Source: Squalus acanthias (lineage: Eukaryota). Taken from it: a DNA stretch of 64,000 bases. Shown piece by piece: positions 5,607 to 41,750 of this stretch. Position numbers and translations under genes: made by a program. The notes under the pieces were generated by a model, which worked only from the letters and a program-made list of their open reading frames with translations, ran no database searches and was not told the DNA's origin. The DNA lies in NCBI GenBank assembly GCA_030390025.1, contig CM059431.1, forward strand, positions 159,342,001 through 159,406,000. The letters run 5' to 3'. Every line of letters starts with the position of its first letter. Position 1 is the first letter of the stretch.

Positions 5607-6162
5607 GGCCCGTATTTTCCACTGCCTACGGGTGCGACCGCGTACACACCCGTAGGCACTGGAAGAGAAAAAGTGAAAACCCGGAACTTACAATCTGCCA
5701 TGAATAATTCCCGGGAAAAGTGCATTCACGGGTAGAGAGTTGGGTTATTCACTCAACTACTGCCCAGCGAATGCCCGTGAAAATCGTCTGGCTGGTAAAA
5801 ACTGGCGTAAGGCATTCTGTTGACAGCATAAGTGTTGAAATAAATATTTTTTATAATTCAATTATTTAAACTTTAAAACACCAGTAAAATAAATTTAGGT
5901 TATTTTTAGCACATTTAAAACGTTTAAAATTATTTTTCAAAATAGTAAACATTTGTTTAAAATGTTTAATTAAATTGTATTTTAATTAAATTTAAATACG
6001 TAACTTTTTTTAATTATTTGGTATGTCAGTATGTTTTTTATGTCATCCACATTCATGCTTATGGGGATTCCGGTCGTGCAGAATCCCCATACGCATATAT
6101 TGGGATTCCCTTCTTTCAAAGGTTCGGCCGGCCCACGCGATACGTGGAATTCTGTGCATGTC
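5607..6162. mobile_element. Related MITE-like copy, interrupted by the CR1/ERV nest (appears to resume at ~23047)
   Basis: ggcccgtattttcc start, ccggaactt motif, AT-rich core and internal hairpin, as in 63089-63848. Confidence 0.55.
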
Positions 6163-6377
6163 ATAGAAATATAGAAGATAGGAGCAGGAGCAGGCCATTC
6201 AGTCCCTTGAGCCTGCTCCACCATTCAATGAGATCATGGCTGATCATTCAAATTCAGTACCCTGTCCCTGCCTTCTTCCCATATCGCTTGATCACTTTAG
6301 CTTTAAGAAATATATCCAACTCCTTCTTAAATATATTTAATGAATTGGCCTCTACTGCCTTCTGTGGTAGAGAATTC
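6163..6377 (-). mobile_element. 3' end of the CR1 that hosts the provirus (continues at 20497-20640 and ~21634-23046)
   Basis: catagaaatatagaagataggagcagg tail. The sequence is continuous across the TSD with 20497 onward. Confidence 0.88.
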
Positions 6378-8001
6378 TGTAAAGCTTCGCAATGATCGCG
6401 ATTCAAAATAACAAGAGAGAAGCAGATTCGTTTGATCAGTTTTATTAAACGAAATGCTGTCCTGATAATAAAGGACACAGAAGCCTGTAAAATGGCCGCC
6501 GCGCATCTTGGCAAAATCTTCCAGAAATACAGTGGGCAGACAAGATGGCGTCGAATAAACATTCAGTATAAGATTGGATCATACTCGGTAAACATGATAA
6601 AGACAGGATGCAACCCGTTTGCATTTGGAACAATAGCAAAGATATAAGTGCTGGAATTGTTTTCCTATGCACAGTAAGGACCATTCTACTGGGCAATTGA
6701 AGGCCCATCCAGACACATCAATGCACAAATACCCCCACGGCTCTACAATGAGAGAGACATTGACGGGTGATTAAGTCAGTATTCGGGAAGGCCCCAAAAC
6801 CAGTCAGGGAGACTCCTGGCTGGGTCAACAATGGGTAAAACATTAACGGATAGTTGGCTAGTTTCAGCAGCTACCGAAAGCCGTTAAAGAGAAGAATTGC
6901 CCCATGTTGGGCGTTTTGTGCGCCAATATTACACAAAGGACAAACATTAAGATTTGAGCGGGAGATAAGGGGACACAGCACTATAACTATAGAGAACAAA
7001 TGTCAATCGCTCTCTTTTGTTTCTCTTATCTCTCGGCGGACCCTTGCTGAAGCTCTTCCTTGGAGCTGGACTTTTGTGTTTCTCTGGACTTTGTTGACTC
7101 TTGCCTCTTAGCCGTACCGGTCGGTTATTCGAATGTTGGGTGGAGCTCAATCGGAACGAGCCGCCCCGACAAGGGCAAGTATCAGGGTACACCATCCCGA
7201 GTGTCGGTAAACGGTGTCTGGACCCGAAGGCCCGAAGAGACGAGACGAGAAGAAGACGAGAAGAATCCACGTGCCGCCACAGTCAGTAAACCCCGACGGC
7301 GGCCGAAAATATAAATAAAAAACTCTTCTTTGAGTTCGAACGACTAGAACCTGTATCGAGCACAGGAAGACTCTTCTTTGAATTTTACAAACGTTCCGAG
7401 TTCTGCCGAGTTCTTCATGACAACAGAGAGTCTGGCCTGCTTTTCGCAGCAGCGAAAGTAAACAAGTGGGGTGCAGAAGCCCTTCCAAACACATGACAGT
7501 CAGGCGCTGCAGCGAAACGAGCTGAGTGCCTCACTTTAAAAATCTCCGAAGTAACACGATTGGTGAGCATGTTTTCCGATCCTACAAATCTAGAGGAAGT
7601 GTAGGTATTGTTAAGGGAGTGTGGTTTTTAATAAGGTTAAGGTATAATGTGTTTCCCTTTTTACGATGTGCCGTGTGTTCTTCACTTCCATAGACCAAGC
7701 TTTATGAATGTATGTATACTTGTACTCTCGTTGATTTGCGCCTATGACATGTACTTCATGATTTTGGACGCTATGCAATAAAGATTTCCATTTCCTACTA
7801 TTCAACCGGCTCTATTTGAGTTTTCTCTGCATTACTGCTCCCTGCACCTAAGTCCAGTGTTAGAAACCGTAAGGGCGAGTGGGTCGAACCACTCACAGGT
7901 ACTTATTGCAAAAAGGCTGGCCGGAGACTAGAGCAAGCAGTAGTATTAGGCAACGAAGACCTAACCTCGCACCAGCACCGTCTGAGACACGCCCCCTTAC
8001 A
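6378..8001 (+). repeat. 5' LTR (1624 bp)
   Basis: TGTAA...TTACA terminal inverted repeat. Aligns end to end with 18874-20496. TATA-like TATAAATA at 7310 and AATAAA at 7777-7782. Confidence 0.96.
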
Positions 8002-8005
8002 GAAA

Positions 8006-9800
8006 ATGGCGACCGCGGCAGGACTCTAGCAGCAGGAGAGTAATGTTTTAGAACCTGGCTTGAATAGGCAAAATGTGATGGATGAGAGGGGAGCCGACTA
8101 TGTGTTTGGTAAGGTTAACTTAACCAAAAAGTGGATAAGTGACCTACTGATGGATAAGCGTCCGCTAGACGCCGCCATCAAATGGATAGGCAGTAAAGAG
8201 CATAAGAAGTCGGTAGAGAAAGCGGTCTGGCTGATGTACTACAAGAAGCAAGTCCAATTTTCGGGTCAGGTCATTGCAGCACAGGCAGCTCAGATCAGGG
8301 ATTTGGAAGTTGAGATGGAGGAAAAGGTCATGGGAGGACAGAAACTCATTGCATCATTGAATGCGTTACATCAGGAACGCCAAATAGTAGCCAACCACCA
8401 TGAGGCTAAAATTGATTACCTGGAATGTCAGGTCACGGAAGCGAAATTAAACGAGGGTAGGATTAGAGAACCGTGTATCCGCTTGGTTAGCCAAATAAAA
8501 GCCCAGGAAGAGAGCTTGAAGGGAGTTAGGGCGGCATATAAGATGGCCCTCGAGGATAGGCACGAGGGAGCCGACCACAGTGTTCGCCAGAAGGAGATAG
8601 GGAACCAAAGAGAGGCCCTCAATAAGGCAAACCGCTTGGTGTGTCTCATCAGCCCGTCAGCGAGCCAGCCACAGGTGGGTAGGGAATTCCCAAAATCCCT
8701 ACCAGAAAAAGCAGAAGAGGTATCTGCCACTATGCCCTCCGCGCCACCCAGCTATTCGGCAACCTGGGTAAGGGAGGAAGTGGTGGAAATAGAGAAAAAG
8801 GTTCCCGAGGTAGGACAATCCCCGGAGGTAGAGTCGAGACCGGGACCAATGTGTCCGCTCCGAGGTCACAAGAGAGGCCCGAATGCAGACAATGGGGAAG
8901 AGGGGGATAACCTGAACCAACTTGTATTGCCCCACAGCTCACAACAGCTGAGAGCAATGATTAGCCATGTACGGAAGCTGTCCGAGTCAGATGACCCTTC
9001 CGTACATTATAGAGAAGTAGAACAGACCGCAGCAATTAATGGCTGCGACGATGAGGAAAAGACCAAAATGTTGCTGTTCTCTTTAGATAGCTCGATCCTT
9101 CAGTGTCTCTCCGACGAGAGCAAGAAGGGAAATAAAACCTATGGGGAGTTACGGGACGAGGTCCTAGAAGTGTTAGGGGCGGATGACGAAGGTCCGTTCG
9201 TCAGATTGTGTCAGACCGTATAGATGGAGGGACAGACAGTGGCCAGTATACCAGCGTAGCTGCCCAGGTGCGCCAGGGCGCAACTACCTGGACGGTGCCG
9301 GGAAAGCTCATTGGCTCAGGTGCATGGTAGCCAACAGTTTGCCAGCCGTCAGGGAGCAGGCCAGAGCGTGGTTTGATCCCACTAACCCCGCCACAACGGA
9401 GGAGGCTGTCCTAAATCGACTCACCATATGGTATCGGAACACTAGGAGCACGGGAGCGCGTCCCCTTAAGGGAAAGGTTGATTTGGCAAGGACCGCAGCT
9501 CCGGCTCAGAAAGAGTGGCATCAGGAGGGAAATTGCGCCCCACAAACCAGTGGTGTTTGTTACGGGTGCGGGAAGACAGGTCACTGGCGTAAAAACTGCA
9601 GGAATCCTTGGAAAAACTCCAGGGACAAAGTTCCGCAGTCCGAACCCAAGCACCTGTCTCTGAGAAAGGAGCTGGTGTGTCTATCCATCCCGATGCGATA
9701 AAATCAATTTTGGGAGCCATGCGGTCCCTTATGATTTCGCAAGGAAGGGTGGCAGTCGCTACCGGCCCCACAGATGCCACAACCCCGTCCACCAGTACCC
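8006..9800 (+). pseudogene. gag: gag (coiled-coil N-terminus, PSAPPSY late domain, capsid-like region, single CCHC zinc knuckle); disrupted
   Basis: ORF 8060-9223 plus frameshifted 9183-9701. CYGCGKTGHWRKNC at 9558-9599 and PSAPPSY at 8735-8755. An in-frame ATG at 8006 is separated from the ORF by one TAG (8027-8029). The 3' boundary with pro is approximate. Confidence 0.85.
8007..8024 (+). promoter_or_regulatory. Primer-binding site complementary to the 3' end of tRNA-Arg(TCG)
   Basis: TGGCGACCGCGGCAGGAC(TC) lies 5 nt after the LTR. Its reverse complement, GAGTCCTGCCGCGGTCG-CCA, matches the 3' end of a vertebrate tRNA-Arg(TCG) as I recall it (not searched). Confidence 0.85.
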
Positions 9801-10080
9801 AATCACTAAATCCCGCACAGCCCGTTTACCTGTGTCTGCTCAGCTATGATGCGTGGAAAAGACCCCTGGTAGAGATGGAGGTAGAGAAGCAGAAGCGTAG
9901 TTATTTGTTGGACACGGGAGCTTCATGCACCGTGATCCATAAGGATAGCCCCTTTGACTCACCACTGTCTACCAAGGTCCATTCACATTAGCAGGGTTCA
10001 CGGGAAAAGAGCAGGCTGGCGCGTTCTCCATTCCGCTCTCCATTCATTTAGGAGCACTCCACACCACATAGAAGTGCATA

Positions 10081-11764
10081 GAAACATAGAAACATAGAAA
10101 ATAGGTACAGGAGTAGACCATTCGGTCCTTCGAGCCTGCACCGCCATTCAATGCGTTCATGGCTGAACATGCTACCTCAGTACCCCATTCCTGCTTTCTC
10201 GCCATACCCCTTGATCCCCTTAGTTGTGAGTGTTATATCTAACTCCCTTTTGAATATATTTAGCGAACTGGCCTCAACAACCTTCTGTGGAAGAGAATTC
10301 CATAGATTCACCACTCTCTGGGTGAAGAAGTTCCTCCTCAGCTCAGTCCTAAATGGCTTCCCCTTAATCCTTAGACTGTGACCCCTGGTTCTAGTTTTCC
10401 CTACCATTGGGAACATTCTGCCCGCATCTAATTTGTCTAAACCAGTCAGGATTTTAAATGTCTCTATAAGATCCCCCCTCATTCTTCTGAACTCCAGAGG
10501 ATACAAGTTCAGTTGACCCAATCTTTCTTGATATGTCAGTCCGGCCATCCCAGGAATCAATCTAGTGAACCTTCGCTGCACTCCCTCAATAGCAAGAATG
10601 TCCTTCCTTAAGTTAGGAGACCAAAACTGCGCACAATACTCCAGGTGTGGCCTCACCAAGGCCCTGTACAACTGTAGCATCACCTCCCTCCTCCTGTACT
10701 CAAATCCCCTTGCTATGAAGGCCATCATTCCGTTTGCTTTCTTGACTGCCTGCTGCACTTGCATTCCCACCTTCAGTGACTGATGTACCATGACGCCCAG
10801 GTCTCGTTGCAAGTCCCCTTTCCCTAATCTGCCACCATTCAGGTAATAGTCCGCCTCTCTATTTTTACCACCAAAGTGGATAACCTCACATTTAGCCACA
10901 TTGTACTTCATCTGCCATACATTTGCCCATTCACCCAACCTGTCCAAGTCACTCTGTAGCCTCCTAGCATCCTCCTCATTGTTCACACTGCCTCCCAATT
11001 TAGTGTCATCCGCAAATTTGGAGATATTACATTTAATCCCTTCGTCCAAATCATTAATATATAATGTAAACAGCTGGGGTCCCAGCACCGAACCCTGCGG
11101 TACCCCGCTGGTCACTGCCTGCCATTCTGAAAAGTACCCATTTACTCCTACTCTTTGTTTCCTGTGTGCCAACCAGTTCTCAATCCACGTCAACACATTA
11201 CCCCCAATCCCATGTGCTTTAACTTTGCTCACCAATCTCTTGTGTGGGACCTTGTCGAAGGCCTTCTGAAAGTCCAAATACACCACATCTACTGGTTCCC
11301 CCCTGTCCACCCTATTGGAAACATCCTCAAAAAATTCCAGAAGATTAGTCAAGCATGATTTCCCTTTCACAAATCCATGCTGACTTGGACCTATCATGTC
11401 GCCACTTTCCAAATGGTCTGTTATGACATCTTTAATAATTGCTTCCATCATTTTACCCACGACCGATGTCAGGCTGACCGGTCTATAATTCCCTGCTTTC
11501 TCCCTCCCTCCTTTTTTAAAAAGAGGGGTTACATTGGCCACCCTCCACTCCATCGGAACTGATCCAGAGTCTAAGGAATGTTGGAAAATGATCGTCAATG
11601 CATCCACTATTTCCAAGGCCACCTCCTTAAGTACTCTGGGATGCAGACCATCAGGCCCCGGGGATTTTTCAGCCTTCAGTCCCATCAATTTCCCCAATAC
11701 CTTTTCCCGACTAATAAGGATTTCCCTCAGCTCCTCCCTCTTACCAGATCCTCTGACCCCTTTT
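10081..11764 (-). mobile_element. Young 5'-truncated CR1 LINE inserted in the ERV protease; uninterrupted ORF2 RT C-terminal 506 aa
   Basis: ORF 10177-11697 (-) has YLDFQKAFDKV, GVPQGSVLGP, FADD and no stops. (ATAGAAAC)n tail at the left end. ATA is shared at both junctions and removal restores KCILMKW. Confidence 0.93.
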
Positions 11765-14603
11765 ATACTGATGAAATGGCAAGAGGGGGGTGGCAGAGGT
11801 ATCCTCGGATCGGATCTCCTAGCGGAACACGGGATCCTCGTGGACCTTAGGAATCACTGTCTCTGGGGAGCCAAGGGTGGAAAAGGCAAGGTAGTTGTAA
11901 TCCCAGGGAAGGAAGGAAAAGGGGCCCTGTGTACCATGAAGCCATCCGGAGGTTACGACTTTGGGCTTATGATCGCGGATGTCCCAACGGACATGCAAAC
12001 GTACGTGTCAGATAATATGCATGCGTTTGCAACCCACAAGTACGATTGTGGGAGGGTTATCGGGTTTGAGGTCAGCATAGCCGGGGATCCCATGACCCGG
12101 CCCCAAAGCAGTATAACTTCCCCAAAGAAGCAGAACCCGACATTGAGACAGCAATGTCCTCATTAGGGCAGCAGGGCATGTTGAGGCCGATAGCCACACA
12201 CGTGAACTCCCCATTATGGCCGGTAAGGAAGCCGGATAATTCGTGGAGGGCCACGGCGGACTACAGAGTCCTTAACAGTAACATCCCCGCCTGCGCTACC
12301 ACAGTAGCAGCAGTTGCTGACCTAATAGGGAGTATCCCAGCGTCCGCGATCACGTTCACGGTGCTGGATATTTCGAACGGTTTTTGGTCCATCTCGCTGC
12401 GGCGAGAGGACAAGTACAAGTTTGCCTTTACTTTCAAAGGACAACAGTAAACGTGGAACTGTTTGCCACAGGGATTCCACAACAGCCCCAGTATTTTCCA
12501 TCAGTGTATGGAAAGAAGTTTAAAGGTGTTTAGTCAGCCCAATCAGATAGTGCAGTACGTGGATGATTTGCTCCTGTTCACGGACTCAAGGGAGGAGCAT
12601 GGACCAATGCTCGCCGAGTTATAGGAGCTGCTAGGGAGAAAGGGTTTTAAAGTTAACCCTAAGAAAGCACGTATCGGTCAGCAGAAAGTAAAATTCCTGG
12701 TCTGATCATTCGCGCTGGGGAAAGAGCCATAGATAAGGTTAGGAGGGAGTCGGTGCAGGAGTTACCGATTCCCAACACCATAACGGGTGTGAGGTCCTTT
12801 CTGGGACTGACCGGTTACTGTAGAGACTTCATCGAGGACTATGCAGCCACAGCAACTCCGCTGCTCCGAAACCTCCATAAGGGAGTGGAGTGGTCTTGGG
12901 ACGAGGGTTCTCAGGCAGCGTTCGAGAAGTTAAAAAGGGATCTGCAGACCGCGCCAGCTTTAGGGGTGATAGATGGGGGGGAGGAGTTTTTCCTGGAGGT
13001 AGCTGCCAGCGGAGACAGCTTGAGCGCCGTGCTGCTCCAAGAGCGACCCGGCAAGCTGAGGCCGGTTGTCTATTCGTCCAGGGTGTTAACGGATGTGGAA
13101 AGGAGTTTTTGCAACTGCGAAAGGCATCTTTTAGCCACGCATTGGGCTGTGAAAAGATCAGCGATCTTCACAGGGCTCTCTCCCATCACTCTCCTCATCC
13201 ATCACACGCCAACCAAGATGCTTCTGGATGGGAGGAATCAGGATGGGACCGTAAGCAGCGCTCGTATTGCGCGCTTGACCCTTCTCCTTTCCCAGATGGA
13301 TCTTAGAGTGAGAGGTCTTTGCGAGCCCAGGCTCGCGGCCAACTTGGTATACCCCGGAACAGCCCACCAGTGTTCGGTGGAAGGGGTGTGGGAGGTCAAC
13401 ATAGGTTTGCGGGCCGGGATACATCCCACAGGTCGCGAGATTTATGTTGATGGTTCAAACACAGTGTCTGCTGGCGAACGATTTACAGGGTGTGGAGTTT
13501 ATGACCCTGCGGCAAACCTTGCCTTGGCAATTAAACTCCCCAGCACGATGAGCGAGCAGCAGGCTTAGCTGTCTGCGGTGGCGTACGTCGTTACCCACAC
13601 AGAAATCTTCCCTACCCCATACACGATTTGTTCGGACAGTATGTTTACGTGCATTTCGTGTATGGAATACCTGGCCATTTGGTCCCGCCGTGGCTACACC
13701 TCCGCAGACGGGCGGCCTTTAACGGTGAAGCCCTTGCTGGAAAAGATCCCAGCAGCAGTCGGGGAGGAAGGGGAGATTTTCATCCACAAGGTGAAGGCTC
13801 ACTCCTCCACAGAACCCCGCGGGGAGGGCAACCAGCAGGCGGATGCGCTAGCCAGGGAAGGTGCCCGTAACTGCATTTTCTGGGACACCTATGGACCCGG
13901 ACCCTTGGCAACGATCCAAGGCAGGGAAGGGAATCCCGGGAACACCAGGGTAGCACTGCCCCTAGACCTTAAGACCGTCCAGAACCAGGAACCCGCCCTA
14001 AAAGCAATTCTCAGAACGATTACTGAGGGCAAGTCGGTAGAGGGCCCGTACAGTACGGCAACCCTGTCCGTTAAAGAAGGCATGCTTTTCCGCGAGGAAT
14101 AGTGGATTGTGCTGCAGCAGCACAGGAGGGAATTCCTCCAGTTGGCTCATGAGGGGCCGGGGCAGGACACCCCGGGCCTGAGGTTACCTGGCAACGGGTA
14201 GAGCAGGCGGGATGGTGGCCGGGACTCAGGGAGCAGGTCCGCGAGTTCTGTGCAAGCTGTCTTGTGTGCGCTGCAAACAACCCAGACCCCCAGAAAAGGA
14301 AAGTGCTATTGGGGCACATCAGGAGGGTGGAGGGACCATGGCAGTCGATACAGTTCGATTACATAGGGCCCCTGCCCTACACCCAGGGAGGCTACAAATA
14401 CTGCCTCGTCCTGGTGGATGTGCTTTCCAATTGGGTAGAAGCCCTTCCCTGTAGAACAGCTACGGCGCTGGGTACTGCCAAGATCTTGGTCCGGGAAGTG
14501 TTCTCGCGGTGGGGACTCCCCCGTTTCGTGGAGTCAGACCAAGGGAGTCATTTCACCGGACAGGTGATGCAGAGCACCCTCACTCTTTTGGGCATTGAAG
14601 GGA

Positions 14604-14684
14604 AGCCATGATCTTATTGAATGGCGGAGCAGGCTCGAGGGGCCGATTGGCCTACTCCTGCTCCTATTTCTTATGTTCTTATGT
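14604..14684 (+). mobile_element. ~80-bp CR1 3'-end fragment inserted in the integrase core
   Basis: agccatgatcttattgaatggcggagcaggctcg...cctactcctgctcctatttcttatgttcttatgt matches the CR1 3' tails elsewhere (e.g. ~28826-28908). Confidence 0.88.
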
Positions 14685-16142
14685 AGCGCACAATCCCCAG
14701 TCATCAGAGATTGTTCAACGCATGAACCGGACCCTCAAGGAAAAACTGAGGAAAGAGACTATGAACTCGCCCCAAAAATGGGCGGAGGTTCTGCCTCTAG
14801 TCCTCATGGGGATTCGGGCCAGCCAGTCGAAGAGTACGGGGTATTGCCCGTACGAGGTGATGACTGGGAGGATCATGCGAACCCCCACCCATTTACTAGA
14901 CCCGGTGCTCACTGAGGATCAGCTCCAAGAGGTGAAACGGGACAAGTTTGTCCAGACCCTCTTGGAGCACCTGAAGCAGGATTACGAGCAGGCGGCTGGG
15001 AACATGGGAAGACAGCAACAGGGCAATCGCCTGTTGCTGGAACCCCGTAAGAAGCAGGAGTGGGAAGTCGGAAATCAGGTCATGTTTAGGAACTATGCCA
15101 GAGTAGGGAGTTTGGAACCGCTGTATATGGGACCCTACAGTATTGTAGATAAGGCGAGTCCCATGGTGTACGCAATAAAGGTATCCCGGCGCACGAAATG
15201 GTTCCACATTAACCAGTGCAAGTTGTATAAACCGGGTGCACAGGGGCCAACCACAGGGGCCAAACCTGCGAGTGGGGACTCTCAGCCCCGTGTAGAACCG
15301 CAGGGCACACAGGCCGGTAAAGCAGCCTGCTTGAGGGGAGAGGACATTCTGGAAAAGTGTCGGATCTTTTCTTGATGTTGGGATTCAGATGAGGAAGAGC
15401 TCGGAGAGCTCGACCAAGGTAGTGACCCAGTCGGAGAGGTGGTGGGTTCGGAGGACGGAGGTTCCGCCCTCGACCCAAGCATAGGGGAGATACGGATTGC
15501 GAGTGGAGTTCCACTTACTGGAGAGACAAGTAGGGTGGATTCGGAAACTGCAGATCCCGAGCCCAGGGGGGCGGAGCCAGGGTAGACAGATGCGGCGGCT
15601 GTGGTAGGACCACAGGCCGTGACGGTGGAAGTCTCGGTTCCCGGTCCGTCGGTCCTGGAAATCTTGCCCAAGGTAGCCCTCCGCAGGTCGAGTCGGACAC
15701 CCCAGCCCAGGAAGCTGTGGTCAAATCCCTCGTACACCTGCAGGCGTAAGTTCAAGGCAGCCCAGGGAGATCCCAGTCCCAGCGCAGCGGCGACAGGCTG
15801 CGGCAGATCAAAGGAAGGGGTCAGTGACGCCCAGCCACTGGGAAAAGCTCGTGGCAGCCTTCGCAGAATTTAGGTAGGCCGCCCTGGGAACGGGCGGCGC
15901 TGTACAGTTAAGTTTAGGTTAAGTCGAAGTTTATAGTGTTTTAAGTTTGTTAAGATTGTAGTTTAATTTTATAAGTAAATGTTGAAATGATGGGAGTTAG
16001 TGATAGGATTAGTTAAGGTCTATCCAGTATACATGTCTTTGTACGTGAGACGAGGTCAAGTGACCCGCTCACCCTTCACAAAAGCCAGAGACTCTTGGGA
16101 GGCTGGCAACATCATTTTATCTGATCACAGGAACCAGGAGAT

Positions 16143-18480
16143 ATGGAAAGGATTCTGATAGTGCTTGCAACGATCGGATATGGATTTACCTATCGTGGCC
16201 TCACCAAGGATGTCGTTGTGTTCGGTTGCACCGGGGACACGGCCCCCATCGCGACGGATGGGACCGGGGAGCGAAAGGCTGAGGAAACCGCCACTTATTT
16301 CCACAAGGGAAGGTGGCCGGGATGGCTGGGAACGAATTCGACGGAATACTCCAGCGCATCAGGGTTTGCGTACAAAAAGACTTCTTTACTGTGTCCCAGG
16401 GTGAGGATCGTTGCACCCAGAATCAGTGTCACCGTCGGCAAAAGGATTTGTTTGACGTGCAATGGGAAGGTCCCATTGAGCCGATGGTGGTGGTTACGGA
16501 AGTTAAGCAAGACTATGAGAAATTCCTCGGTCGAGTGGGAGCGATTGGGTAACAATACCCATCGGACAATTACAGGGACTAACGGACAATTGAAAGTCTG
16601 TTGGGACAAATGGTGGGAACCAGATGAGGGAATATATGTTTGTATGTGGGGATCGAAGTACGTTTGCCCCAAGGGTATATCCATATTTTTGCTACAACAG
16701 TGGCAGGATGACGGGAAAGGGATGAGGTGGGATGTCAGCACCAATGGGTTTGGAGCTCCATTCTCCCTGATCCCGGTAAACGCCATTGAACTCATCACGC
16801 GCCCATGCAAGTCTCCGCCCACGATTCCGGTGGCATTGGCTCAGGAGGATGGGTGCCCTAAAACCACTAAGGGGCCCGGGAATGGTCTGGTACTGGTGCC
16901 AACAGATCAGATACTATATCAAGGGGTACATTACGCGGTGGCTTCGGTGATTCTAAATCTCACCGAGGTGCATTTACCAGAGTGGTGTCCCAAAGAAATG
17001 GAACAATTGTACCAGGTCCTGTTAACAAACATGTTCAGGTAATTTTATGAGTTTGATTTTGCAGAGGTTGACAAAACAAGCTTATACACCACACCACACG
17101 AAGTTTTGGGTCAGGTGGGGAGACAAAGAAGGGGTTTTGTGAACGATGTGTTCACTGCTTTTAATACGGGAACATCTGTGGTCAACGCTCTAGACAATGT
17201 GGAGCTGCAGACCCAGATCAACGGTTTAAAATCATCCTCACAAACGAGAACAAGGTAGTAGGGTCTGAGTTACATGAGGACCAGCCCATGACACTAAACT
17301 TAAAAGAGATTATAGCAGAGCTGGAGAAGCATGCGAGAACGGTAAATGCCCTGATCAGGGAAGATCGAAATGCATCCGATCAAGCTGCGCAGAACGAGCT
17401 TTGCGTACTATACGGGGCGTGGTTACTGGGCGAGGGCCGCAGTAATTTGGAGGATTTAAAACAAGGTTTGGTCCCGTCCTGGATAAGTAACAAACACCTG
17501 CAAGCGCTCCACCCTTTTCAGAACGCATTAAGCCCGTGCCATCTCAGGCTAGCCTCAGAGGCATACCCAGTCCCAGTGGACTGCGGACGGTCAAATCACA
17601 CTATCATGGGGATAGTAGTACGGATGCCGGTGTTGGGAGACACAGCAAAGCCCGCCCCGGTGTACCGGGTGGAGAACATTGGTATCATTCAGGGGGGAGT
17701 CCACATTCGCTAAGCAGCGGTCCCACCTTACCTCATCCGCTGGGAGCAAACGATGACAGGTACCGACCTTTCGGGTTGTCGTGGCCGGGGAGCACACATC
17801 ATACTGTGTCCACAGCACTTGAATGCCTTTTTAACACCACAATGAGGGTTCAGAACGGCTGGCGCGAAGCCCATCAATTACACCATTGAAGGAATGACAC
17901 AAGATCATGTGCCGCCACAGGTGGCATACATAGGGGGTGGAACGTATTGCGTTACCACTGCAGCGCAACACTACCAGCATAGACAGCACAGCCGGTGTCC
18001 GGTGAGTGTCAGCAGTTTCTGTTTTAAACCCAGGGCTGAAGTTCAAGTGGCACAACAGCGAATTATCCCGATCCCTGAACCATCCACTTTTCACCTCACT
18101 GTAAAATAGAATTACACAGACTTGCAGCGAATCGTCGCGCATTTCGGATACATCATTCCCCCTCTCCCTGAACACCTCACCAAGATTTTAAAAGCCGTCA
18201 TGGTATCACAGAAACATTTTTACACCCTGGAACAAAAGACTGTAGAGATTGGGCAGAGATATTAGATTTAGTAATCCCACCGTGGTGGGATCTGTTCACT
18301 AATATTGAAGTCCCATCATGGATCAGGATAGCCTCCCACATTTTGGTAGTGTGTCAAGTCGTAATTGTAGTGTACCTAATGGTCGTACACTGCAAAAGAG
18401 GCAAACGCCTCACGAGTCAGGAGAACACAGAGGAGTGGAGAGAACATTATGTGCACGTGAACGAGGAAAGCACCGCGTAA
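16143..18480 (+). pseudogene. env: env: signal peptide, Ig-like domain, furin site RQRR, fusion peptide/heptad, Cys-rich F1-like ectodomain, TM and short tail; disrupted
   Basis: MERILIVLATIGYG signal follows a splice-acceptor-like ...ctgatcacag (16130). RQRR|GFVNDVFTAFNTGTSVVNALDNVELQTQINGLK starts at 17121. TM IASHILVVCQVVIVVYLMVVHC at ~18328-18393. Tail YVHV, stop TAA at 18478-18480. Confidence 0.88.
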
Positions 18481-18618
18481 ACGGCCAGGATGACGCCGCT
18501 CCATTTTACCATGTGTGTTTTTGTAATTGTTGTTAGTTATGAATATGTGTAACTAAGTTCGGAACTTTTGTATTTTTAAAATAGTTGGTGTGATAATTTT
18601 TTCCTTTTATAATAAAAC

Positions 18619-19011
18619 ATGCATATACAGGTGGTGCGAGAGGCATCGGACTTTTGCACCTGGAAGGCGTATACGCAGTGTAAGTTTAAAGGCAATACTG
18701 CCTACGATTTGTCCAAGATAGAACTTGTGTTTTCTCTGGGAAATGAGGACTGCATGGAAGCCATAGATAGTTTAAGAACCGGGAGTGTTTGGATGTGGAG
18801 AATCGGGATAATTGTGCTCACCACCTTTTTAATTGTTATGATAAGCGGAGTTATTCGCATCAACAGGAGGGACTGTAAAGTTTCGCAATTATCACGATTC
18901 AAAATAACAAGAGAGAAGCAGATTCGTTTGATCAGCTTTATTAAACGAAATGCTGTCCTGATAATAAAGAACACAGAAGCCTGTAAAATGGCCGCCGCGC
19001 ATCGTGGCTGA
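18619..19011 (+). CDS. Putative accessory ORF with one TM helix, crossing the PPT into U3 of the 3' LTR
   Basis: 130-aa ORF. Hydrophobic IGIIVLTTFLIVMISGVI is followed by basic RINRRDCK. A pyrimidine tract and CAG|G acceptor lie at 18630. The same frame is open further in the 5' LTR copy (6432-6647). Confidence 0.5.
   Translation: MHIQVVREASDFCTWKAYTQCKFKGNTAYDLSKIELVFSLGNEDCMEAIDSLRTGSVWMWRIGIIVLTTFLIVMISGVIRINRRDCKVSQLSRFKITREKQIRLISFIKRNAVLIIKNTEACKMAAAHRG
18862..18873 (+). promoter_or_regulatory. Polypurine tract (short, imperfect)
   Basis: AACAGGAGGGAC immediately precedes the TG of the 3' LTR. Confidence 0.7.
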
Positions 19012-20496
19012 AGCTTCCAGAAATACAGTGCGCAGACAAGATGGCGTTGAATAAACATTCAGTATAAGATTGGATCATGCTCGGTAAACACTGATAAAGA
19101 CAGAATGCAACCCGTTTGCATTTGGAACAATAGCAAAGATATAAGTGCTGGAATCGTTTTCCTATGCACAGTAAGGACCATTGTACTGGGCAATTGAATG
19201 CCCATCCAGACACATCAATACACAAATACTCCCACGGCTCTACAATGAGAGTAAAATTGACGGGTGATTAAGTCAGTATTCGGGGAGGCCCCAAAACCAG
19301 TCAGGGAGACTCCTGGCTGGGTCAACAATGGGGAAAACATTAACGGATAGTTGGCCAGTTTCAGGTTCTACCGAAACCCGTTAAAGAGAAGAATCGCCCC
19401 ATGCTGGGAGTTTTGTGCACCAATATTACACAAAGGACAAACATTAAGATTTGAGCGGGAGATAAGGGGACACAGCACTATAACTATAGATAACAATTGT
19501 CCATCGCTCTCTTTTTTTCTCTTATCTCTCGGCGGACCCTTGCTGAAGCTCTTCCTTGGAACTGGACTTTTGTGTTTCTCTGGACTTTGTTGACTCTTGA
19601 CTCTTAGCCGTACTGGTCGGTTATTCGAATTTTGGGTGGAGCTCAATCGGAACGAGACGCCCCAACAAGGGCAAGTAACGGGGTACACCATCCCGAGTGT
19701 CGGTAAACGGTGTCTGTACCCGGAGGCCCGAAGAGACGAGACGAGAAGAAGACGAGAAGAATCCACGTGCCGCCACGGTCAGTAAACCCCGACCGCGCCC
19801 GAAAATATAAATAAAAAACTCTTCTTTGAGTTCTACCGACTACAACCTGTATCGAGCACAGGAAGACTCATCTTTGAATTTTACAAACGTTCCGAGTTCT
19901 GCCGAGTTCCTCATGACAACAGAGAGTCTGGCCTGCTTTTCGCAGCAGCGAAAGTAAACAAGTGGGGTGCAGAAGCCCTTCCAAACACGTGACAGTCAGG
20001 CGCTGCAGCGAAACGAGCTGAGTGCCTCACTTTAAAAATCTCCGAAGTAACACGAGTGGTGAGCATGTTTTCCGATCCTACAAATCTAGACGTAGTGTAG
20101 GTATTGTTAAGGGAGGTAGGTTTTTAATAAGGTTAAGGTATAATGTCTTCGCGTTTTTAGGATGTGCCATGTGTTCATCATTTCCATAGACCAAGCTTTA
20201 TGAATGTATGTATACTTTTACTCTCGTTGATTTGCGCCTATGACATGTACTTCATGAATTTGGATGCTATGCAATAAAGATTTCCATTTCGTACTATTCA
20301 TCCGGGTTTATTTGAGTTTTCTCTCCATTACTGCTCCCTGCACCTAAGTCCAGTGTTAGAACAGTAAGGGCGAGTGGGTCGAACCACTCGCAACTGCTTA
20401 TTGCAAAAAGGCTGGCCGGAGACCAGAGAAAACAATAGTATTAGGCAACGAAGGCCTAACCTCGCACCAGCACCGTCTGAGACACGCCCCCTTACA
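18874..20496 (+). repeat. 3' LTR (1623 bp)
   Basis: Copy of the 5' LTR, preceded by the purine-rich AACAGGAGGGAC and followed by the ATTC TSD. Confidence 0.96.
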
Positions 20497-23046
20497 ATTC
20501 CACAGGTTCACCACTCTCTGGGTGAAGAAATTCCTCCTCATCTCAGTCCAAAATGGCTTTTCCCTTATCCTTAGACTGTGACCTCTAGTTTTGGACTCCC
20601 CGGCCATCGGGAACATCCTTCCTGCATCTAGTCTGTCTAGTACATAGATACTTAGATACATAGAAGATAGGAGCAGGAGTAGGCCATCCGGCCCTTCGAG
20701 CCTGCTCCGCCATTTAATGAGATCATGGCTGATCCTCCAATTCAGTATCCCGTCCCCGCCTTCTCTCCGTAACCCTTAACCCCTTTTGCCTGTAGAAATA
20801 TATCTAATTCCCTCTTAAATATATTTAATGAGCTGGCGTACACTGCCCTCTGTGGCAATGAGTTCCATAGGTTCACCACCCTCTGAGTGAAGAAATTCCC
20901 CCTCATTTCTGTCCTAAATGGTTTAGCCCTTATCCTTAAATTATGTCCTCTAGTTCTGTTCTCACCCGCCAAGGGAAACATTCCTTCTGCATCTAGTCTG
21001 TCTAGACCTGTCAGAATTTTATACACTTCTATGAGGTCCCCTCTCAATCTTCTAAACTCCAGTGTGTACATCCCTAAACTACATAGTCTCTCCTCATAGG
21101 TCAATCCCGCCATTCCTGGTATCAGCCTGGTGAATCGCCGCTGCACCCCCTCCATGGCAAGAACATCTTTCCTCAGATGAGGCGACCAAAACTGTACACA
21201 GTACTCGAGGTGTGGTCTCGCCAGTGCCCTGTACAGCGGCAGCAAGGTATCCCTGTTCCTGTATTCCAACCCTTTTGCTATGAAGGCCAGCATACCGTTT
21301 GCCTTCTTGACCGCCTGTTGCACCTGCATGCTCGCCTTCAGTGACTGGTGTACAAGAACACCCAGGTCTCTCTGTACTTCCCCCTCTCCCAATTTATTGC
21401 CATTTAAATAATAATTTGCCCTCCCGTTCCTGCACCCAAGGTGGATAACTTCGCACTTGTCCACATTATAGTGCATCTGCCATTTATCCGCCCAATCACC
21501 CAGTCTGTCCAAATCGCACTGGAGCTTCCTGGTCTCCTCCTCTGAGCCCACCCCCCTCCTAGTTTAGTGTCGTCTGCAAATTTGGAAATGCTGCATCCGA
21601 CTCCCTGACCCAGGTCATCAATGTAAATTGTGAATTTTATAAGTTTCAATGAGATCCCCTCTCATTCATCTAAACTCCAGCGAGTATAAGCCCAATCGAC
21701 CCAATCTCTCCTCATACATCATTCCTGCCATCCAAGGTATCAGCCTGGTGTATCTTCGCTGCAGTCCCTCCATGGCAAGAACATCCTTCCTCAGATAAGG
21801 CGATCTAAACTGTGCACAATACTCAAGATGTTGTCTCACCAAGGCCCTGTACCACAGCAGCAAGACATCCTTGTTCCTGTACTAGTACCCTTTCGCTACG
21901 AAGGCCAACATACCATTTGCCTTCTTCAACGCCTGCTGCACCTGCATGCTTACCTTCAGCGACTGGTGCACAAGGAAACCCAGGTCTCGTTGCACTTCTC
22001 CTTCTCCCAAACTATTGCCATTCAGATGATAATCTGCCTTCCTGTTTTTTTTTATACCAAAGTGATTAACCTCGCATTTATCCACATTATATTGCATCTG
22101 CCATGCTTCTGCCCAATCACCCAACCTGTCCAAATCATACTGGAGTTTCTCGGCATCCTCCTCACGGCACACACTCCCACCCAGCTTTGTGTCACCTGCA
22201 AACTTGGAGATATTACATCCAATTCCCTCGTCTAGATCATTAATATATATTGTGAATAGCTGGAGTCCCAGCACCGAACCCTGCGGTACCCCTCTAGTCA
22301 CGGCCTGCCACTTGGAAAAAGACCCATTTATTCCAACTCTTTGCTTTCGGTCTGCCAAGCAGTTCTCTATCCAAAATCAATACCTTCCCCCCAATCCCAT
22401 GTGCCTTAACTTTACACGCCAATCTCTTATGCGGGACCTTATCTAAAGGCTTCTGAAAGTCCAAATATACCACATCCACTGGTTCTCCCTTATCTTTTTT
22501 ACCAGTTACATCCTCAAAAAAATTCAATAGATTAGTCAAGCACGATTTACCTTTTGTAAATCCATGTTGACTTTGTCCGATCCTGTCACTGTTTTCCAAG
22601 TGCTCTGCTATTACATCTTTTATAATGGACTCTAGCATTTTCCCCACTACCGATGTCAGGCTTACCGGATATAATTCCCCGTTTTCTCTCTACCACCTTT
22701 TTTAAATAGTGGGGTAACATTAGCTATCCTCCAATATATGGGTACTGTTCCAGAGTCTATAGAATTTTGGAAGATGACCAGCAATGCATCTACTGTTTCG
22801 AGGGCCACTTCCTTAAGTACCCTAGGATGTAGAGTATCAGACCCTGGGGATTTATCGGCCTTTAAACCCGTCAATTTCCCTAACACTATTTCCCTACAAA
22901 TACTGATTTATTTCAGTTCCTCCATCTCATTAGACCCTATATTCCCCGACATCTCTGGGAGGTTATTTGTGTCCTCCTTTTTGAAGGCAGAACCAAAGTA
23001 TGTACTTAATTGAGCTGCCATTTCTTTGTTCCCCATTATAAATTCC
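20497..23046 (-). mobile_element. Remainder of the host CR1 ORF2 (RT), with a younger CR1 nested at ~20641-21633
   Basis: Minus-strand RT ORFs 21666-22886, and an open 269-aa RT C-terminus at 20742-21551 with its own tail at 20641. Confidence 0.88.
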
Positions 23047-25400: not shown

Positions 25401-28400
25401 TTGGAGGGGGAGGGCGAACAGCCAGCTGTCGTGGAGCACATAGGTACCAACGATATAGGTACAAAAGGGGATGAGTTCCTAAAAGCAGAATATAGGGAGT
25501 TAGGAGGAAAATCAAATGTAGGACCTCAAAGGCAGCAATCTCAGGATTGCTACCAGTGCCACGTGCTGGTCAGAGCAGAAATAGGAGGATATTTCAAATG
25601 AATACGTGGCTAGAGGAATGTTGCAAGGGGGAGGGATTCAAATTCCTGGGACATTGGAACCGAGCCTGGGGGAGGTGGGCCCAGTACAAACCGAACGGTC
25701 TGCACCTGGGCAGGGCCGGGACCGCTATCCCAGGGGGAGTGTTTGCTAGTGCTGATGGGGAGGGTTTAAACTAAAGTGGCAGGGGGTTGACACCTGAGCA
25801 GGGAGACAGAGGAAAGCGTGTCAGGAAGGGACAGAACGTATGGAGTAAAAGGTAAAGTGTTAAAAAAGGAAAAAGCAGGAACTAAGTGTCACAAAAGGTA
25901 TTTGAAAGTTCTTCATCTGAATGCACGTCGCATTCGTAACAAAATGGATGAGTTAACGGCAAAAATAACTACGTATGGGTATGATCTTGTGGCCATTACA
26001 GAAACATGGCTGCAGGGTGACAACGACTGGAATTAAATATGCCAGGGTATTTAACAATCAGGTAGGACAGGCAGGAAGAAAGGGGAGGTGGGGTGGCTTT
26101 GTTAATAAAGGAAGGAATCACTGTAATTCAGAGAAATTATATTGGGTCAAAGGATCAGGATAATGAAAAAGTTTGGGTGGAGTTAAGGAATAATAAGGGG
26201 AAAAAAACAATAGTGGGAGTAGTATATAGGCCTCCTAATAGTTGCAACTCTGCTGGAAGAATTATTAATCAGGAAATAGTTGGGGCATGTAATAAGGGAA
26301 CAGCTATAATTATGGGGGATTTTAGCTATCATATTAACTGGACAAATCAAATTGGGCAGGGCGGCCTTGAGGAAGAGTTTATTGAGAGTATTAGGGATGG
26401 ATTTCTTGAGCAGTATGTAACTGATCCTACAAGTGGGCAAGCAACCTTGGACCTGGTCCTGTGTAATGAGTCAGGATTAATTAATAATGTCCTAGTTAAG
26501 GATCCCCTTTGAATGAGTGACCATAACATGGTTGAATTCCATATCCAATTAGAGGGTGAGATGGTTGGTTCTCAAACAAGCGTACTGAGCTTGAATAAAG
26601 GAGACTATGATGTTATGAGAGCGGAATTGATGAAAGTGGACTGGGAAAATAGATTAAAGGTTAAGATGGTACATGAGCAGTGGTGTTCATTTAAGGAGTT
26701 ATTTTACAACATTCAAAAAAATTATATTCCGATGAGGAAAAATGGGTGTAAAAGAAATGACAGCCAACCGTGGCGAAGTAATTAAATTAAGGATAGTATC
26801 CGACTAAAAACAAGGACGTATAAGGTAGCCAAACTTAGTGGGAGGATAGAAGATTGGGAAGTCTTCAAAAGAAAGCAAAAAGTAACTAAAGGATTGATTA
26901 AGAAAGGGAAGATAGATTATGAAAATAAATTAGCAAAAAATATAAAAACAGATAGCAAGCCTTTCTAAAGTTATATAAAAAGGAAAAGGGTGGTCAAGGC
27001 AAACCTAGGTCCCTTAGAGGATGAGGCGGGGAAATTAATGGTGGAAAACATGGAGATGGCAAAAATGCTGAACAAATATTGTGTTTCAATCTTTATGTTA
27101 GAGGACACTAAGAATATCCCAACACAGGACAAACAGGGGGCTCTACGGGGAGGGGAGGAGCTAAATACGATTAAAATCACTAAGGAATTGGTACTCATAA
27201 AATAATGGGACTCAAGGCGGATAAATCCCCTGGACCTGATGGCTGACATCCTAGGGTCTTGAGGGAAGTGTCAGTAGGGATTGTGGATGCTTTGGTAATA
27301 ATTTTCCAAAATTCCCTGGACTCAGCAAAGGTCCCGGCAGGTTGGAAAACTGCTAATGTAACACGCTTATTTAAAAAGGGTAGTAGGCAGAAGGCTGGAA
27401 ATTATAGACCAGTTAGCCTAACATCTGTGGTGGGTAAAATTTTGGAGTCTATTATTAAGGAGACATTAACGGAACATTTAGTTAAACATAATTTAATAGG
27501 ACAAAGTCAGCATGGCTTTATGAAGGGGAAGTCATGTCTGACAAATTTGCTTGAGTTCTTTCAGGACAGAACGTACAGGGTTGATAAAGGGGAACCAGTG
27601 GACGTAGTGTATGTAGACTTCCAGAATGCATTCGACAAGGTGCCACATAAAAGATTATTGCTGAAGATAAAAAATCACTGGATTGGGGGTATTATTCTGG
27701 CATGGGTGGAGGATTGGTTATCTAACAGGAAGCTGAGAGTTGGGATAAATGGTTCATTCTCGGACTGGCAACCATTAGCCAGTGGTGTTCCGCAGGGGTC
27801 GGTGCTGGTCCCCAACTCTTTACAATCTATATTGTCGATTTGGAGGAGGGGACCGAGTGTAACATATCAAAGTTTGCAGATGATACAAAGATGGGAGGGA
27901 AAGTAGAAAGTGAGGAGGACATAAAAAACATACAGGGGATAAAGACAGGCTGGGTGAGTGGGCGGAGATTTCGCAGATGCAATAAAATATTGGAAAATGT
28001 GAGGTTATGCATTTTGGCAGGAAAAATCAGAGAGCAAGTTATTATCTTAATGGCGAGCAACTGGAAAGTACTGCAGTACAAAGGTATCTGGGGGTCCTAG
28101 TGCAAGAAAATCAAAAAGTTTGTATGCAGGTGCAGCAGGTGATCAAGAAGGCCAACTGAATGTTGGCTTTTATTGCTAGGGGGATAGATTATAAAAACAG
28201 GGAGGTATTGCTGCACTTTATAAGGTATTGGTGAGTCCGCTCCTGGAATACTGCATACAGTTTTGGTGTCCATACTTAAGAAAATACATACTTGCTCTCG
28301 AGGCAGTAGAAATAAGATTCACTCGGTTAATCCCGGGGATGAGGGGGTGGATATATGAGGAGAGGTTGAGTAGATTGGGACTCTACTCATTGGAGTTCAG

Positions 28401-33020: not shown

Positions 33021-34510
33021 ATGGCAGGAGATCTCCACCCCGTGATGTGCTCCTCCTGCTATATGTGGGAAATGAGGGACGCTTCCTGTGTCCCTGAAGA
33101 CCATGTGCGTGGGAAGTGTATCCAGCTGCAGCTACTGATAGACCGCATTGCGGCGCTGGAGCTGTGGATGGATGCATATTGGAGCATTCGCGATGCTGAG
33201 AACGTCGTGGATAGCACGTTTAGCGAGTTGGTCACACCGCAGGTAAAGGGTGTACAGGCAGGAAGTGCAAGGGTCCCCTGTGGCAATCCCCCTCTCAAAC
33301 AGATATACCACTTATACTCAAACCCTTTCGCTATGAAGGCCAACATATCATTTGCCTTCTTCACCGCCTGCTGCTCCTGCATGCTTACTTTCAGCGACTG
33401 GTGCGCAAGGACACCCAGGTCTCGTTGCACTTCCCCTTCTCCCAATCTATTGCCATTCAGATAATAGTCTGCCTTTCTGTTTTTGACACCAAAGTGGATA
33501 ACCTCGCATTTATCCACGTTATATTGCATCGGCCACGCTTCTGCCCACTCACCCAACCAGTCCAAATCATCCTGGAGTTTCTCGGTATCCTCCTCGCAGC
33601 ACACACTGCCACACAGCTTTGTGTCATCTGCAAACTTGGAGATCTTACATTTAGTTCCCTTATCTAGATCATTAATGTATATTGTGAATAGCTGGGGTCC
33701 CTGCGGTACCCCACTAGTCACTGCTTGCCACTCGGAAAAAGACCCATTAATTCCTACTCTCTGCTTTCTGTCCGCCAACCAGTTCTCTATTAAAGTCAAT
33801 ACCTTGTCCCCAATCCCATGTGCCTTAATTTTACACGCTAATCTCTTATGCGGGACCTTATCGAAAGCCTTTTGAAAGTCCAAATACACCACATCTACTG
33901 GTTCTCCCTTATCTATTTTCCCACTTACATCCTCAAAAAATTCCAGTATATTAGTCAAGCACGAATTACCTTTTGTAAATCCATGTTGACTTTGTCCGAT
34001 CCTTTCACTGTTTTTCAAGTGCTCAGCTATTACATCCTTTATAATGGAGTCTAGCATTTTCCCCACTACCGATGTCAGGCTTACAGATCTGTAATTCCCC
34101 GCTTTCTCTCTACCACCCTTTTTGAATAGTGGGGTAACATTAGCTACCCTCCAATCCATGGGTACAGTTCCAGATTCCTACAAATGTTGGAAGATGATCA
34201 GCAATGCATCTACTAGTTCTAGGGCCAGTTCCTTAAGTACCCTAGGATGTTGATTATCAGGCCCTGGGGATTTATCGGCCTTCAATCCCGTCAATTTCTA
34301 TAACACCATTTCCCTGCAAATACTGATTTCTTTCAGTTCCTCCCTTTCATTAGACCGTATGTTCTCCAACATCTCTGGGAGGTTATTTGTGTCCTCCTTT
34401 GTGAAGACAGAACCAAAATATGCATTTAATTGGACTGTCATTTCTTTGTTCCCCATTATAACTTCCCCTGCTTCTGACTGCAAGGGACCTACACTTGATT
34501 TCACTATTTT
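33021..34510. mobile_element. CR1 ORF1 5' part (+, 33021-~33310) fused to an inverted CR1 ORF2 fragment (-, ~33311-34510)
   Basis: Cys-rich ORF1 start, then the minus-strand RT ORF 33059-34159. Confidence 0.85.
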
Positions 34511-34519
34511 TTTCTCTTT

Positions 34520-36454: not shown

Positions 36455-36529
<75 letters not shown>

Positions 36530-38520: not shown

Positions 38521-38739
38521 ACAGGGCTGTCCTATTTACTGTTACTGTTTACTGTTTAAAATCTAAATTTCCAAGCTTTAAGCAAGGTTATAAAGGGATA
38601 TACAAGGTCTACATTTCAGAGCAGCTGAAGGCAGTTAATTATGGAAACTAGATTAAAGTGGTTCTCCTGTAGCTGGGCTCAGCAAGTCTCCTTTGTTTCA
38701 GGACCTATAAAAACATGCTTTGAAGTTTGAGTTTGCACT

Positions 38740-41700: not shown

Positions 41701-41750
41701 GATTGTGATATAATTGAACAAATCAGTATTGAGAGGGAGGAGGTACTAGC
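38740..41750 (+). mobile_element. 5' half of a CR1 (5' UTR, ORF1 with Cys motif/coiled coil/SGNH esterase, APE endonuclease)
   Basis: ORF 39118-39717 has IVIGDSIVRG, CCLPGARV, then HIGTND. ORF 40185-40775 has AITET, YRPPNS, GDFNFP. Confidence 0.9.
40922..41195 (+). mobile_element. 5'-truncated HE1-like (elasmobranch) SINE with a CR1-derived tail, nested in CR1
   Basis: cgtgcgggttaggttgatttggctatgataaattgacccttag core, then a CR1 3' tail. The host rejoins as gatctgtccaaa-gtggactgg. Family name is from recall. Confidence 0.6.

Follow-up and report, generated by a model that had tools for sequence, protein, structure and literature searches.

One integrated retroviral copy occupies positions 6378-20496 of a 64,000-nucleotide stretch of the genome of the shark Squalus acanthias (assembly GCA_030390025.1, contig CM059431.1, positions 159,342,001 to 159,406,000 of the forward strand; hereafter the window). 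We read this provirus, with a probability of about 0.72, as an old member, now dead, of a very abundant, deep-branching shark endogenous retrovirus (ERV) family that lies outside the lokiretroviruses (Loki). The family would carry an envelope protein (Env) with the fold of the paramyxovirus and pneumovirus fusion protein F and an immunoglobulin (Ig)-like head. It would belong to a clade of sharks, frogs and coelacanth near the base of the retroviruses, probably within the clade of the snakehead retrovirus (SnRV). A sequence-only reading of the window had instead taken the element for a complete lokiretrovirus-like provirus, perhaps an undescribed lineage of cartilaginous fishes.

The placement outside Loki comes from a tree of the reverse transcriptase (RT) and the adjoining tether, the first of two RNase H domains. 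The alignment has 52 rows and 433 columns with a gypsy outgroup; the published CmiERV and Huo sequences and foamy-like ERVs of fish and sharks lie outside it. Reference retroviruses were IMG/VR contigs, fetched by short back-translated motifs and labelled by Pfam on their gag and env frames, and scanning viral contigs for patterns drawn from the Pol alignment gave two loci only. SnRV is represented by a 10,688-base IMG/VR contig (L027) whose RT is identical to the published SnRV row. In this tree, the two Loki rows split from the 43 other retroviral rows with support of 100/99. The next branch after Loki is a 4-row clade (P0100, P0102, P0103 and P0104; 100/99) that includes an ostrich 'NYNRIN-like' protein and may be another little-known basal lineage. 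Of the remaining 39 rows (87/85), 10 form one clade (87/92), and the other 29 form its sister group (92/95), which comprises SnRV, foamy viruses and orthoretroviruses. The shark family falls in the 10-row clade together with Xenopus, three other frogs, the coelacanth and two unnamed rows; NCBI calls the frog, Xenopus and coelacanth Pols 'NYNRIN-like'. Uniting the 10-row clade with Loki is rejected by the approximately unbiased (AU) test (p 0.002). The groups for this test were defined with the first tree already in view, although the Loki hypothesis was that of the sequence-only reading.

The RT motifs point the same way. The shark RT reads CLPQGFHNSP, whereas the Loki rows in the available part of the published supplement (PMC7947760) read (C/L/M)PFGY, which we use as a Loki marker from our own reading of the alignment, not as a definition by its authors. 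The motifs had been called spuma- or loki-like. In the part of the published RT alignment at hand (PMC7947760 supplement), LDISNGFW does occur, three times, and the two places displayed are SnRV rows; LPQGFHNSP does not occur there. The earlier description of the motifs is partly wrong. With LPQGF instead of PFGY, the 100/99 split and the AU result, we do not regard the element as a lokiretrovirus.

The second line of evidence is the envelope. Env begins with a signal peptide and an N-terminal head, followed by F2-like strands, an RQRR cleavage site (17121-17132; all provirus features lie on the plus strand unless stated), a fusion segment with a long helix, beta-rich domains, a stalk helix, a membrane anchor (~18322-18387) and a short tail. 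Neither the env fragments of the window nor the open env frame of a better-preserved paralogue, L023, match an envelope family in Pfam, and Fusion_gly (PF00523) is not matched by these or by 20 Env relatives. A profile built from the alignment of these 20 relatives finds the Env gp130 of foamy viruses as its best solved match (8rm1_D, E 2.1e-5; 8rm0_A, E 1.1e-4), a significant profile-to-sequence match over the fusion subunit. An AlphaFold2 (AF2) model of the paralogue Env, made with the same alignment, has a predicted local distance difference test score (pLDDT) of 70-90 at residues ~242-660 and below 50 at residues 1-241. Searching with the core of this model, Foldseek places paramyxovirus and pneumovirus F on top (1ztm_B, E 2.4e-12), with 242 matches at E <= 0.001; the best structural matches include F of human parainfluenza virus 3 (hPIV3; 1ZTM) and of respiratory syncytial virus (3RKI). 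According to the model, the Env fusion core has the paramyxovirus/pneumovirus F fold. The F-like Env of the sequence-only reading is therefore borne out by fold (E 2.4e-12 to hPIV3 F), and not by any match to PF00523. The F proteins belong to RNA viruses and lack an N-terminal head; they are 9-15% identical to the shark Env in sequence and give no sequence-level match. A Baculo_F lead was weak and was dropped: its protein atlas score was only 0.75, to a cluster in which 19% of the members carry Baculo_F.

The available text of PMC11468914 describes one core shared by foamy Env, F and coronavirus spike. Because the F fold is also found in foamy Env, an F-like Env no longer discriminates Loki. 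The pair of traits that had been taken to define Loki, dual RNase H and an F-like Env, fails as a definition for this reason, and the SnRV Env, too, aligns to the shark core. Foamy and shark Env are further alike in joining an F-type core to an added receptor-binding module, which in the shark is predicted; the foamy module sits between the subunits (PMC11468914, same text), whereas that of the shark is N-terminal. Could the shark family then be a foamy-like ERV, of class III and related to Spumaretrovirinae, like ERV-Spuma or the endogenous foamy virus elements of cartilaginous fishes? Besides the gp130 match of the Env profile, it would account for prototype foamy virus integrase as the best solved integrase match (110.5 bits) and for the long long terminal repeats (LTRs). 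A 9,220-bp consensus from a catshark is known in the literature as ERV-Spuma.0-Sca (PMC10699275, in the part available). Joining the 10-row clade to the foamy viruses costs 9.1 log-likelihood units (lnL), which the AU test leaves standing at p 0.075, but in the tree the foamy viruses belong to the 29-row group, and the shark clade stands apart from it. Pol scores higher against the RT of XMRV/MLV (234.8-230.7 bits) than against foamy PR-RT (215.6-202.9 bits), and neither Gag_spuma nor Foamy_virus_ENV is matched, whereas 9/9 foamy gag frames and 4/4 foamy env frames scanned do match. Neither Pol nor Gag of the shark family is foamy-like. Its Gag has a CCHC knuckle, and its gag and pol have an in-frame readthrough layout; foamy Gag is not known to carry such knuckles, and foamy pol is expressed from an mRNA of its own. 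A quick integrase tree, in which foamy viruses and SnRV group together (95), also leaves the shark family outside. We consider the foamy-like alternative unlikely.

SnRV resembles the family in several respects. Both have a primer-binding site (PBS) for tRNA-Arg, a feature said to be a hallmark of SnRV. The SnRV site matches tRNA-Arg(ACG) at 18/18 positions when compared with host tRNA genes, whereas the shark site corresponds to the isoacceptor TCG. SnRV (L027) and the paralogue L023 both have gag and pol in one frame with one stop between them, and in SnRV as in the shark family an open reading frame (ORF) lies downstream of env. Each Gag has one zf-CCHC, and SnRV Gag also gives weak coiled-coil-type matches. 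The RT motif LDISNGFWSI is exactly common to both, and the Pols are 32% identical over 810 residues. In addition, the Env profile aligns to the core of SnRV Env by hhalign (probability 89.6%, E 1.9e-6, 288 columns), which suggests distant homology; shark Env and SnRV Env compared by BLASTP give an insignificant E of 0.18. The two differ in that SnRV Env has ~500 residues ahead of the fusion core, against ~230 in the shark Env. SnRV also lies in the sister 29-row group of the RT tree, and its integrase groups with that of foamy viruses, whereas the shark integrase does not. In the available parts of the sources, SnRV-related ERVs, the clade 'Huo', are described from all major vertebrate lineages (PMC6001957), a cartilaginous fish among the hosts (PMC6001957, PMC12193657), and an elephant shark lineage (CmiERV lineage I) clusters with SnRV (PMC4422223). 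On balance, what the literature calls the SnRV clade, or clade Huo, most probably includes the shark family. Since the Huo and CmiERV sequences are outside our tree, we file it as deep-branching and as a probable, not a proven, member.

Ahead of the fusion core, the first 230 Env residues are confined to shark and skate relatives. Within them, a V-like Ig domain is predicted at Env residues ~93-175 (16401..16649). The head gives weak matches to Ig_3 in Pfam and to antibody light chains in sequence, and phmmer with one Env against solved structures returned weak antibody light-chain matches only. One Env relative is named 'Ig-like domain-containing' in UniRef. When the head is searched with Foldseek, the named rows that can be recognised are V-type domains, namely antibody light chains, the V domain of shark IgNAR and CD8 alpha. 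According to this modeling, the Env head is probably Ig V-like.

Several observations weigh against our reading. The Loki anchors of the tree are two teleost Pols only, obtained by a profile search, and these were recognised by motif identity to published rows, not by a label. In an RT-core tree without the Loki rows, which does not resolve the placement relative to foamy viruses, a position of the shark clade outside all other retroviruses is kept by the AU test (p 0.307). The RT+tether tree does not group the 10-row clade with SnRV; imposing that grouping costs 7.4 lnL (AU p 0.098). In the quick integrase tree, Loki groups with the frog, coelacanth and ostrich-type rows (SH-aLRT 90), and the shark family is basal without resolution, so that integrase does not separate it from Loki. 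NYNRIN, whose name NCBI gives to the relatives of the shark family, is presumably CGIN1. The integrase published for Loki is close to CGIN1. On the envelope side, none of the 20 Env relatives matches any Pfam envelope family at E <= 5, and the link to SnRV Env rests on a single-sequence template. A second AF2 model, of the head, has a mean pLDDT of 49.7, with 64-84 across residues ~93-175, and the Foldseek matches of the head have E values of 0.011-0.028, none reaching E <= 0.001. Transversions outnumber transitions between the two LTRs, so the LTR clock may be disturbed. Finally, stop-codon readthrough, cleavage by furin and binding of a receptor are predictions from standard retrovirology.

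Some of these points would fit a genuine, if divergent, member of the lokiretrovirus lineage reported by Wang and Han (2020), from a branch in cartilaginous fishes that is not yet described. The integrase tree and the outside position in the RT core leave room for it, and dual RNase H with an F-fold Env are both stressed in PMC7947760. The thumb motif FIEDYA resembles the Loki motif F(I/V)(E/D)DYA. Loki and the shark family share the order LTR-gag-pol-env and the tether with a second RNase H, a trait common to other retroviruses. They also share an Env that carries a signal peptide, an RxxR cleavage site, a coiled coil and an anchor and is related to paramyxovirus and pneumovirus F, as well as the 'NYNRIN-like' kind of integrase and lower-vertebrate hosts. 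However, the shark RT lies outside the Loki clade and lacks PFGY, no smc gene was seen in the shark provirus, and the shark Env has an extra head of ~230 residues. The Env of Loki-Str matches Fusion_gly at E 2.2e-7 (PMC7947760), whereas the shark Env does not match it. The Loki-Xtr Env, as printed in the available part of PMC7947760, has a short F2 and a hydrophobic fusion peptide directly after RPKR, and it is unlike the X. tropicalis relative of the shark Env. Cartilaginous fish are not among the published Loki hosts and go unmentioned in the main text of that study (PMC7947760). The authors of that study screened shark genomes, and the one cartilaginous-fish row visible in their supplement gives 3 screened genomes and 0 with Loki. 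Our own search of the host genome with Loki Pol gave nothing above 35% identity in a strict first look, so that absence is not established. The three best loci all read LPQGFH, and the best, at 34-35%, belong to another retroviral family of this genome (L103/L104). With the 100/99 split and the AU rejection, we hold membership in Loki to be quite unlikely and retain the deep-branching, non-Loki shark family as our reading.

The coding plan of the family follows the order gag-PR-RT-tether-RNase H-IN-env with a small ORF behind it, as the sequence-only reading had given it; Pfam supports the order, and the fold supports the envelope. On the window copy, Pfam finds zf-CCHC, RVP, RVT_1, RT_RNaseH_2, RNase_H, Integrase_H2C2 and rve, and then an SH3-like match below the cut-off. 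In L023, the whole pol domain order stands in one 1458-residue frame, after gag and a single in-frame stop. The dual RNase H described from the letters alone is real. The tether matches RT_RNaseH_2 and the second domain RNase_H, at E 4.5e-20 and 4.3e-11 in the window copy and at E 6.5e-21 and 3.8e-20 in L023. Where an active enzyme of the Ty3 type carries D, E and D, the tether reads AAS...E...HH, with two of the three catalytic acidic residues gone, and is therefore degenerate, while the second RNase H retains the D-E-D-D motifs (DGS, AEL, SDS, H...D).

This Ty3-type relic bears on a further alternative, an env-carrying Ty3/gypsy retrotransposon of errantivirus type, which we regard as extremely unlikely. 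Among solved structures, the whole Pol scores best against Ty3 Gag-Pol (236.7 bits, in two stretches), RT_RNaseH_2 is still recognised in the tether, weak Baculo_F leads appear among the Env relatives, and the copy number is very high. Against it stand the LPQGF motif of retroviruses and the second, retrovirus-type RNase H (PF00075), which the gypsy rows lack. Nesting of the RT within Ty3/Gypsy, an outcome that the sequence-only reading had raised for an RT phylogeny, is not what we find: the family lies inside the retroviral clade, apart from gypsy, in both trees (100/100 and 100/99).

The 5' LTR (6378..8001, 1624 bp) and the 3' LTR (18874..20496, 1623 bp) form a direct repeat with TG...CA ends, the 3' LTR beginning one base later than had been read from the letters. 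The target-site duplication ATTC stands before the 5' LTR (6374..6377) and, with the same four bases, after the 3' LTR (20497..20500). Five bases past the 5' LTR lies the PBS (8007..8024), TGGCGACCGCGGCAGGAC, the complement of tRNA-Arg(TCG). Host tRNA-Arg(TCG) genes end in GTCCTGCCGCGGTCG, and with CCA added they match the site at 18/18 positions. The PBS-complement pattern has 617 matches in the host genome, and those inspected are tRNA-Arg(TCG) by ARAGORN. These genes are repeated every 1.62 kb in long tandem arrays, beside tRNA-Ser(GCT) (contig C26 of the assembly G000, ~38.99-42.31 Mb; L090-L094). The candidate polypurine tract, AACAGGAGGGAC at 18862..18873, is a purine-rich run directly before the 3' LTR; it is present as reported, yet it is short, interrupted and weak. 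With LTRs, target duplication, PBS and this candidate tract, the earlier picture of an integrated retrovirus that keeps all its cis elements holds.

The provirus sits in the 3' region of a long interspersed nuclear element (LINE) on the minus strand, which occupies 6150..6377 and resumes at 20497-20639. The repeat families of these flanks (D8, D6, D5) are collinear with 10073-10439 of a LINE insert inside the provirus. Because both flanks follow one LINE 3' region, the target site can be read as it was before integration. The LTRs differ at 83 of 1621 aligned bases (Kimura two-parameter distance, K2P, 0.053), by 46 transversions and 37 transitions; gene conversion of one LTR or alignment slips may account for the excess of transversions. 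Two other copies of the family have 4-bp target duplications, CACG and CTTC, and LTR distances of 0.0138 and 0.0093, smaller than in the window copy; for these younger copies, transversions/transitions are listed as 12/10 and 13/2. Elsewhere in the window, the GC skew is strongly positive (0.21-0.36 in 2-kb windows) at 26001-28000 and 34001-42000.

The window copy is a dead provirus, complete in structure only, with every gene broken. The call of a complete provirus is thus right for the structure and wrong for gag, pol and env. We counted the damage against the frames of the open-frame paralogue L023. Gag (8078..9802, by Pfam and comparison with L023) has a coiled-coil-rich N-terminal part and one CCHC knuckle, and contains two frame changes; the codon at 9803-9805, a sense codon here, is the gag stop in the paralogue. 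Pro-pol (9806..15908, by Pfam and by tblastn against pol of L023) has at least six frame changes and about ten stops. It comprises the protease (~9854-9946, with the remainder beyond a LINE insert), RT (~12106-12700), the tether (~12897-13295), RNase H (~13440-13870) and integrase, whose zinc-binding domain, core and SH3-like part (~14162-15228) are followed by an acidic tail. Env (16143..18480, compared with the 789-aa frame of L023) has two frame changes and four stops, its reading frames being spread over 16125-18477. The extra ORF downstream of env does exist (18619..19011) and runs into the 3' LTR, but its coding status is uncertain. Among copies it is 53, 71-73, 98 or 131 aa long, and many copies have stops in it. 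Since its length is inconsistent, we do not claim it as a gene.

Two LINE insertions, reported earlier as CR1 inserts, are confirmed by comparison with a paralogue. The larger is a 5'-truncated CR1-like LINE of 1.69 kb on the minus strand in the protease region (10080..11764), not viral, with RVT_1 at E 2.1e-34 and missing from the paralogous locus L099. The smaller is a 77-bp 3'-end fragment of the same LINE family on the plus strand (14606..14682), which replaces 6 bp of the integrase core. The duplicate of the provirus lies 334 kb upstream on the same contig (window 6178-20709 against G000:C7:159013595-159028780; L097, L098, L099 and L014). It has identical junctions on both sides and 98.7-99.0% identity, flanks included, lacks the 1.69-kb LINE and carries another insert in env. 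The same junctions without the large LINE indicate integration first, then segmental duplication, then LINE insertion. The history of the window copy would accordingly run from integration into a LINE tail, through copying by segmental duplication and two later LINE insertions, to decay. A third LTR pair lies ~4 Mb from the window copy.

The family as a whole appears very abundant from sequence searches, with at least 131-150 scored copies and thousands of first-look candidates. A Pol query of 301 residues gave at least 131 scored matches, all ~90-93% identical to the query, from 15,454 first-look candidates, and about 40 of the scored matches stand in open frames of at least 1,400 residues (hand count). 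An Env query of 182 residues gave at least 150 scored matches from 9,891 first-look candidates, with 33 of the scored matches in open frames of at least 789 residues (hand count). By sequence search, Env relatives occur in a skate (77% identity), four sharks and three frogs. The cartilaginous-fish host suspected from the letters alone agrees with relatives from five sharks and skates, besides the frogs. Some public gene models join Env pieces to host genes: Niban-like and zinc-finger proteins in a sawshark, fbxo15 in a horn shark and, in one further model, a cadherin-domain protein (P0002, P0003, P0010, P0033). These fusions look like annotation chimeras over ERV insertions. The other related retroviral family of this genome, at L103 and L104 (G000:C24 and C4), has the RT motif DISNGFWSIPVKSEDQYKFAFTFEDQSYTWTCLPQGFHNAPTIFH.

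The life cycle that we propose applies standard retrovirology to the domains and motifs observed in the family. Host tRNA-Arg(TCG) would prime reverse transcription, and Gag-Pro-Pol would be made by readthrough of the single in-frame stop. Pol combines the degenerate Ty3-type RNase H, as tether, with a second RNase H that is catalytically complete by motif, and the integrase would generate 4-bp target duplications. Env may act as a class I fusion protein, built from the Ig-like head, the RQRR site, the F-fold core and the membrane anchor; the head would probably bind a receptor, and a furin-type protease would cleave at RQRR. The clade would have branched after the lokiretroviruses, near the base of the remaining retroviruses and beside SnRV, foamy viruses and orthoretroviruses.

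Retroviruses in sharks and SnRV-like ERVs in cartilaginous fish are already known, and the copy in the window, taken alone, is a dead provirus of an ordinary kind. The headline of a first shark lokiretrovirus fails; a deep non-Loki clade of sharks, frogs and coelacanth with an F-fold Env takes its place. Our literature search, which left the bioRxiv supplements and a J Virol 2023 paper on cartilaginous-fish foamy viruses uncovered, found no description, for any retroviral lineage other than lokiretroviruses and foamy viruses, of an F-fold Env that has an Ig-like head at its N-terminus; in the same scope, it found no report that ties SnRV Env to such a protein. Given the match to foamy-virus Env in sequence and the match to SnRV Env by profile, the F-type core would be spread more widely across the basal retroviruses.

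A broader and more tentative reading, which we think possible though less than even, is that the F-type (class Ib) core is the ancestral retroviral envelope and not a one-off capture by Loki from negative-strand RNA viruses. It would then persist in four deep lineages, namely Loki, the shark/frog/coelacanth clade, SnRV and foamy viruses, with a different receptor-binding module added in each; the Ig V-like head may have come from the host. The envelopes of gamma type and of lentiviruses would have replaced the F-type core later. A comparison of the four envelopes makes this testable as repeated envelope capture against single inheritance. That env is open in many copies despite the very high copy number is unusual, and it offers natural material for an Ig-like head on a class I fusion protein. 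If the F-type core is indeed ancestral, the shark family, which has hundreds to thousands of copies and an open env in many of them, would be a living-fossil system for that envelope.

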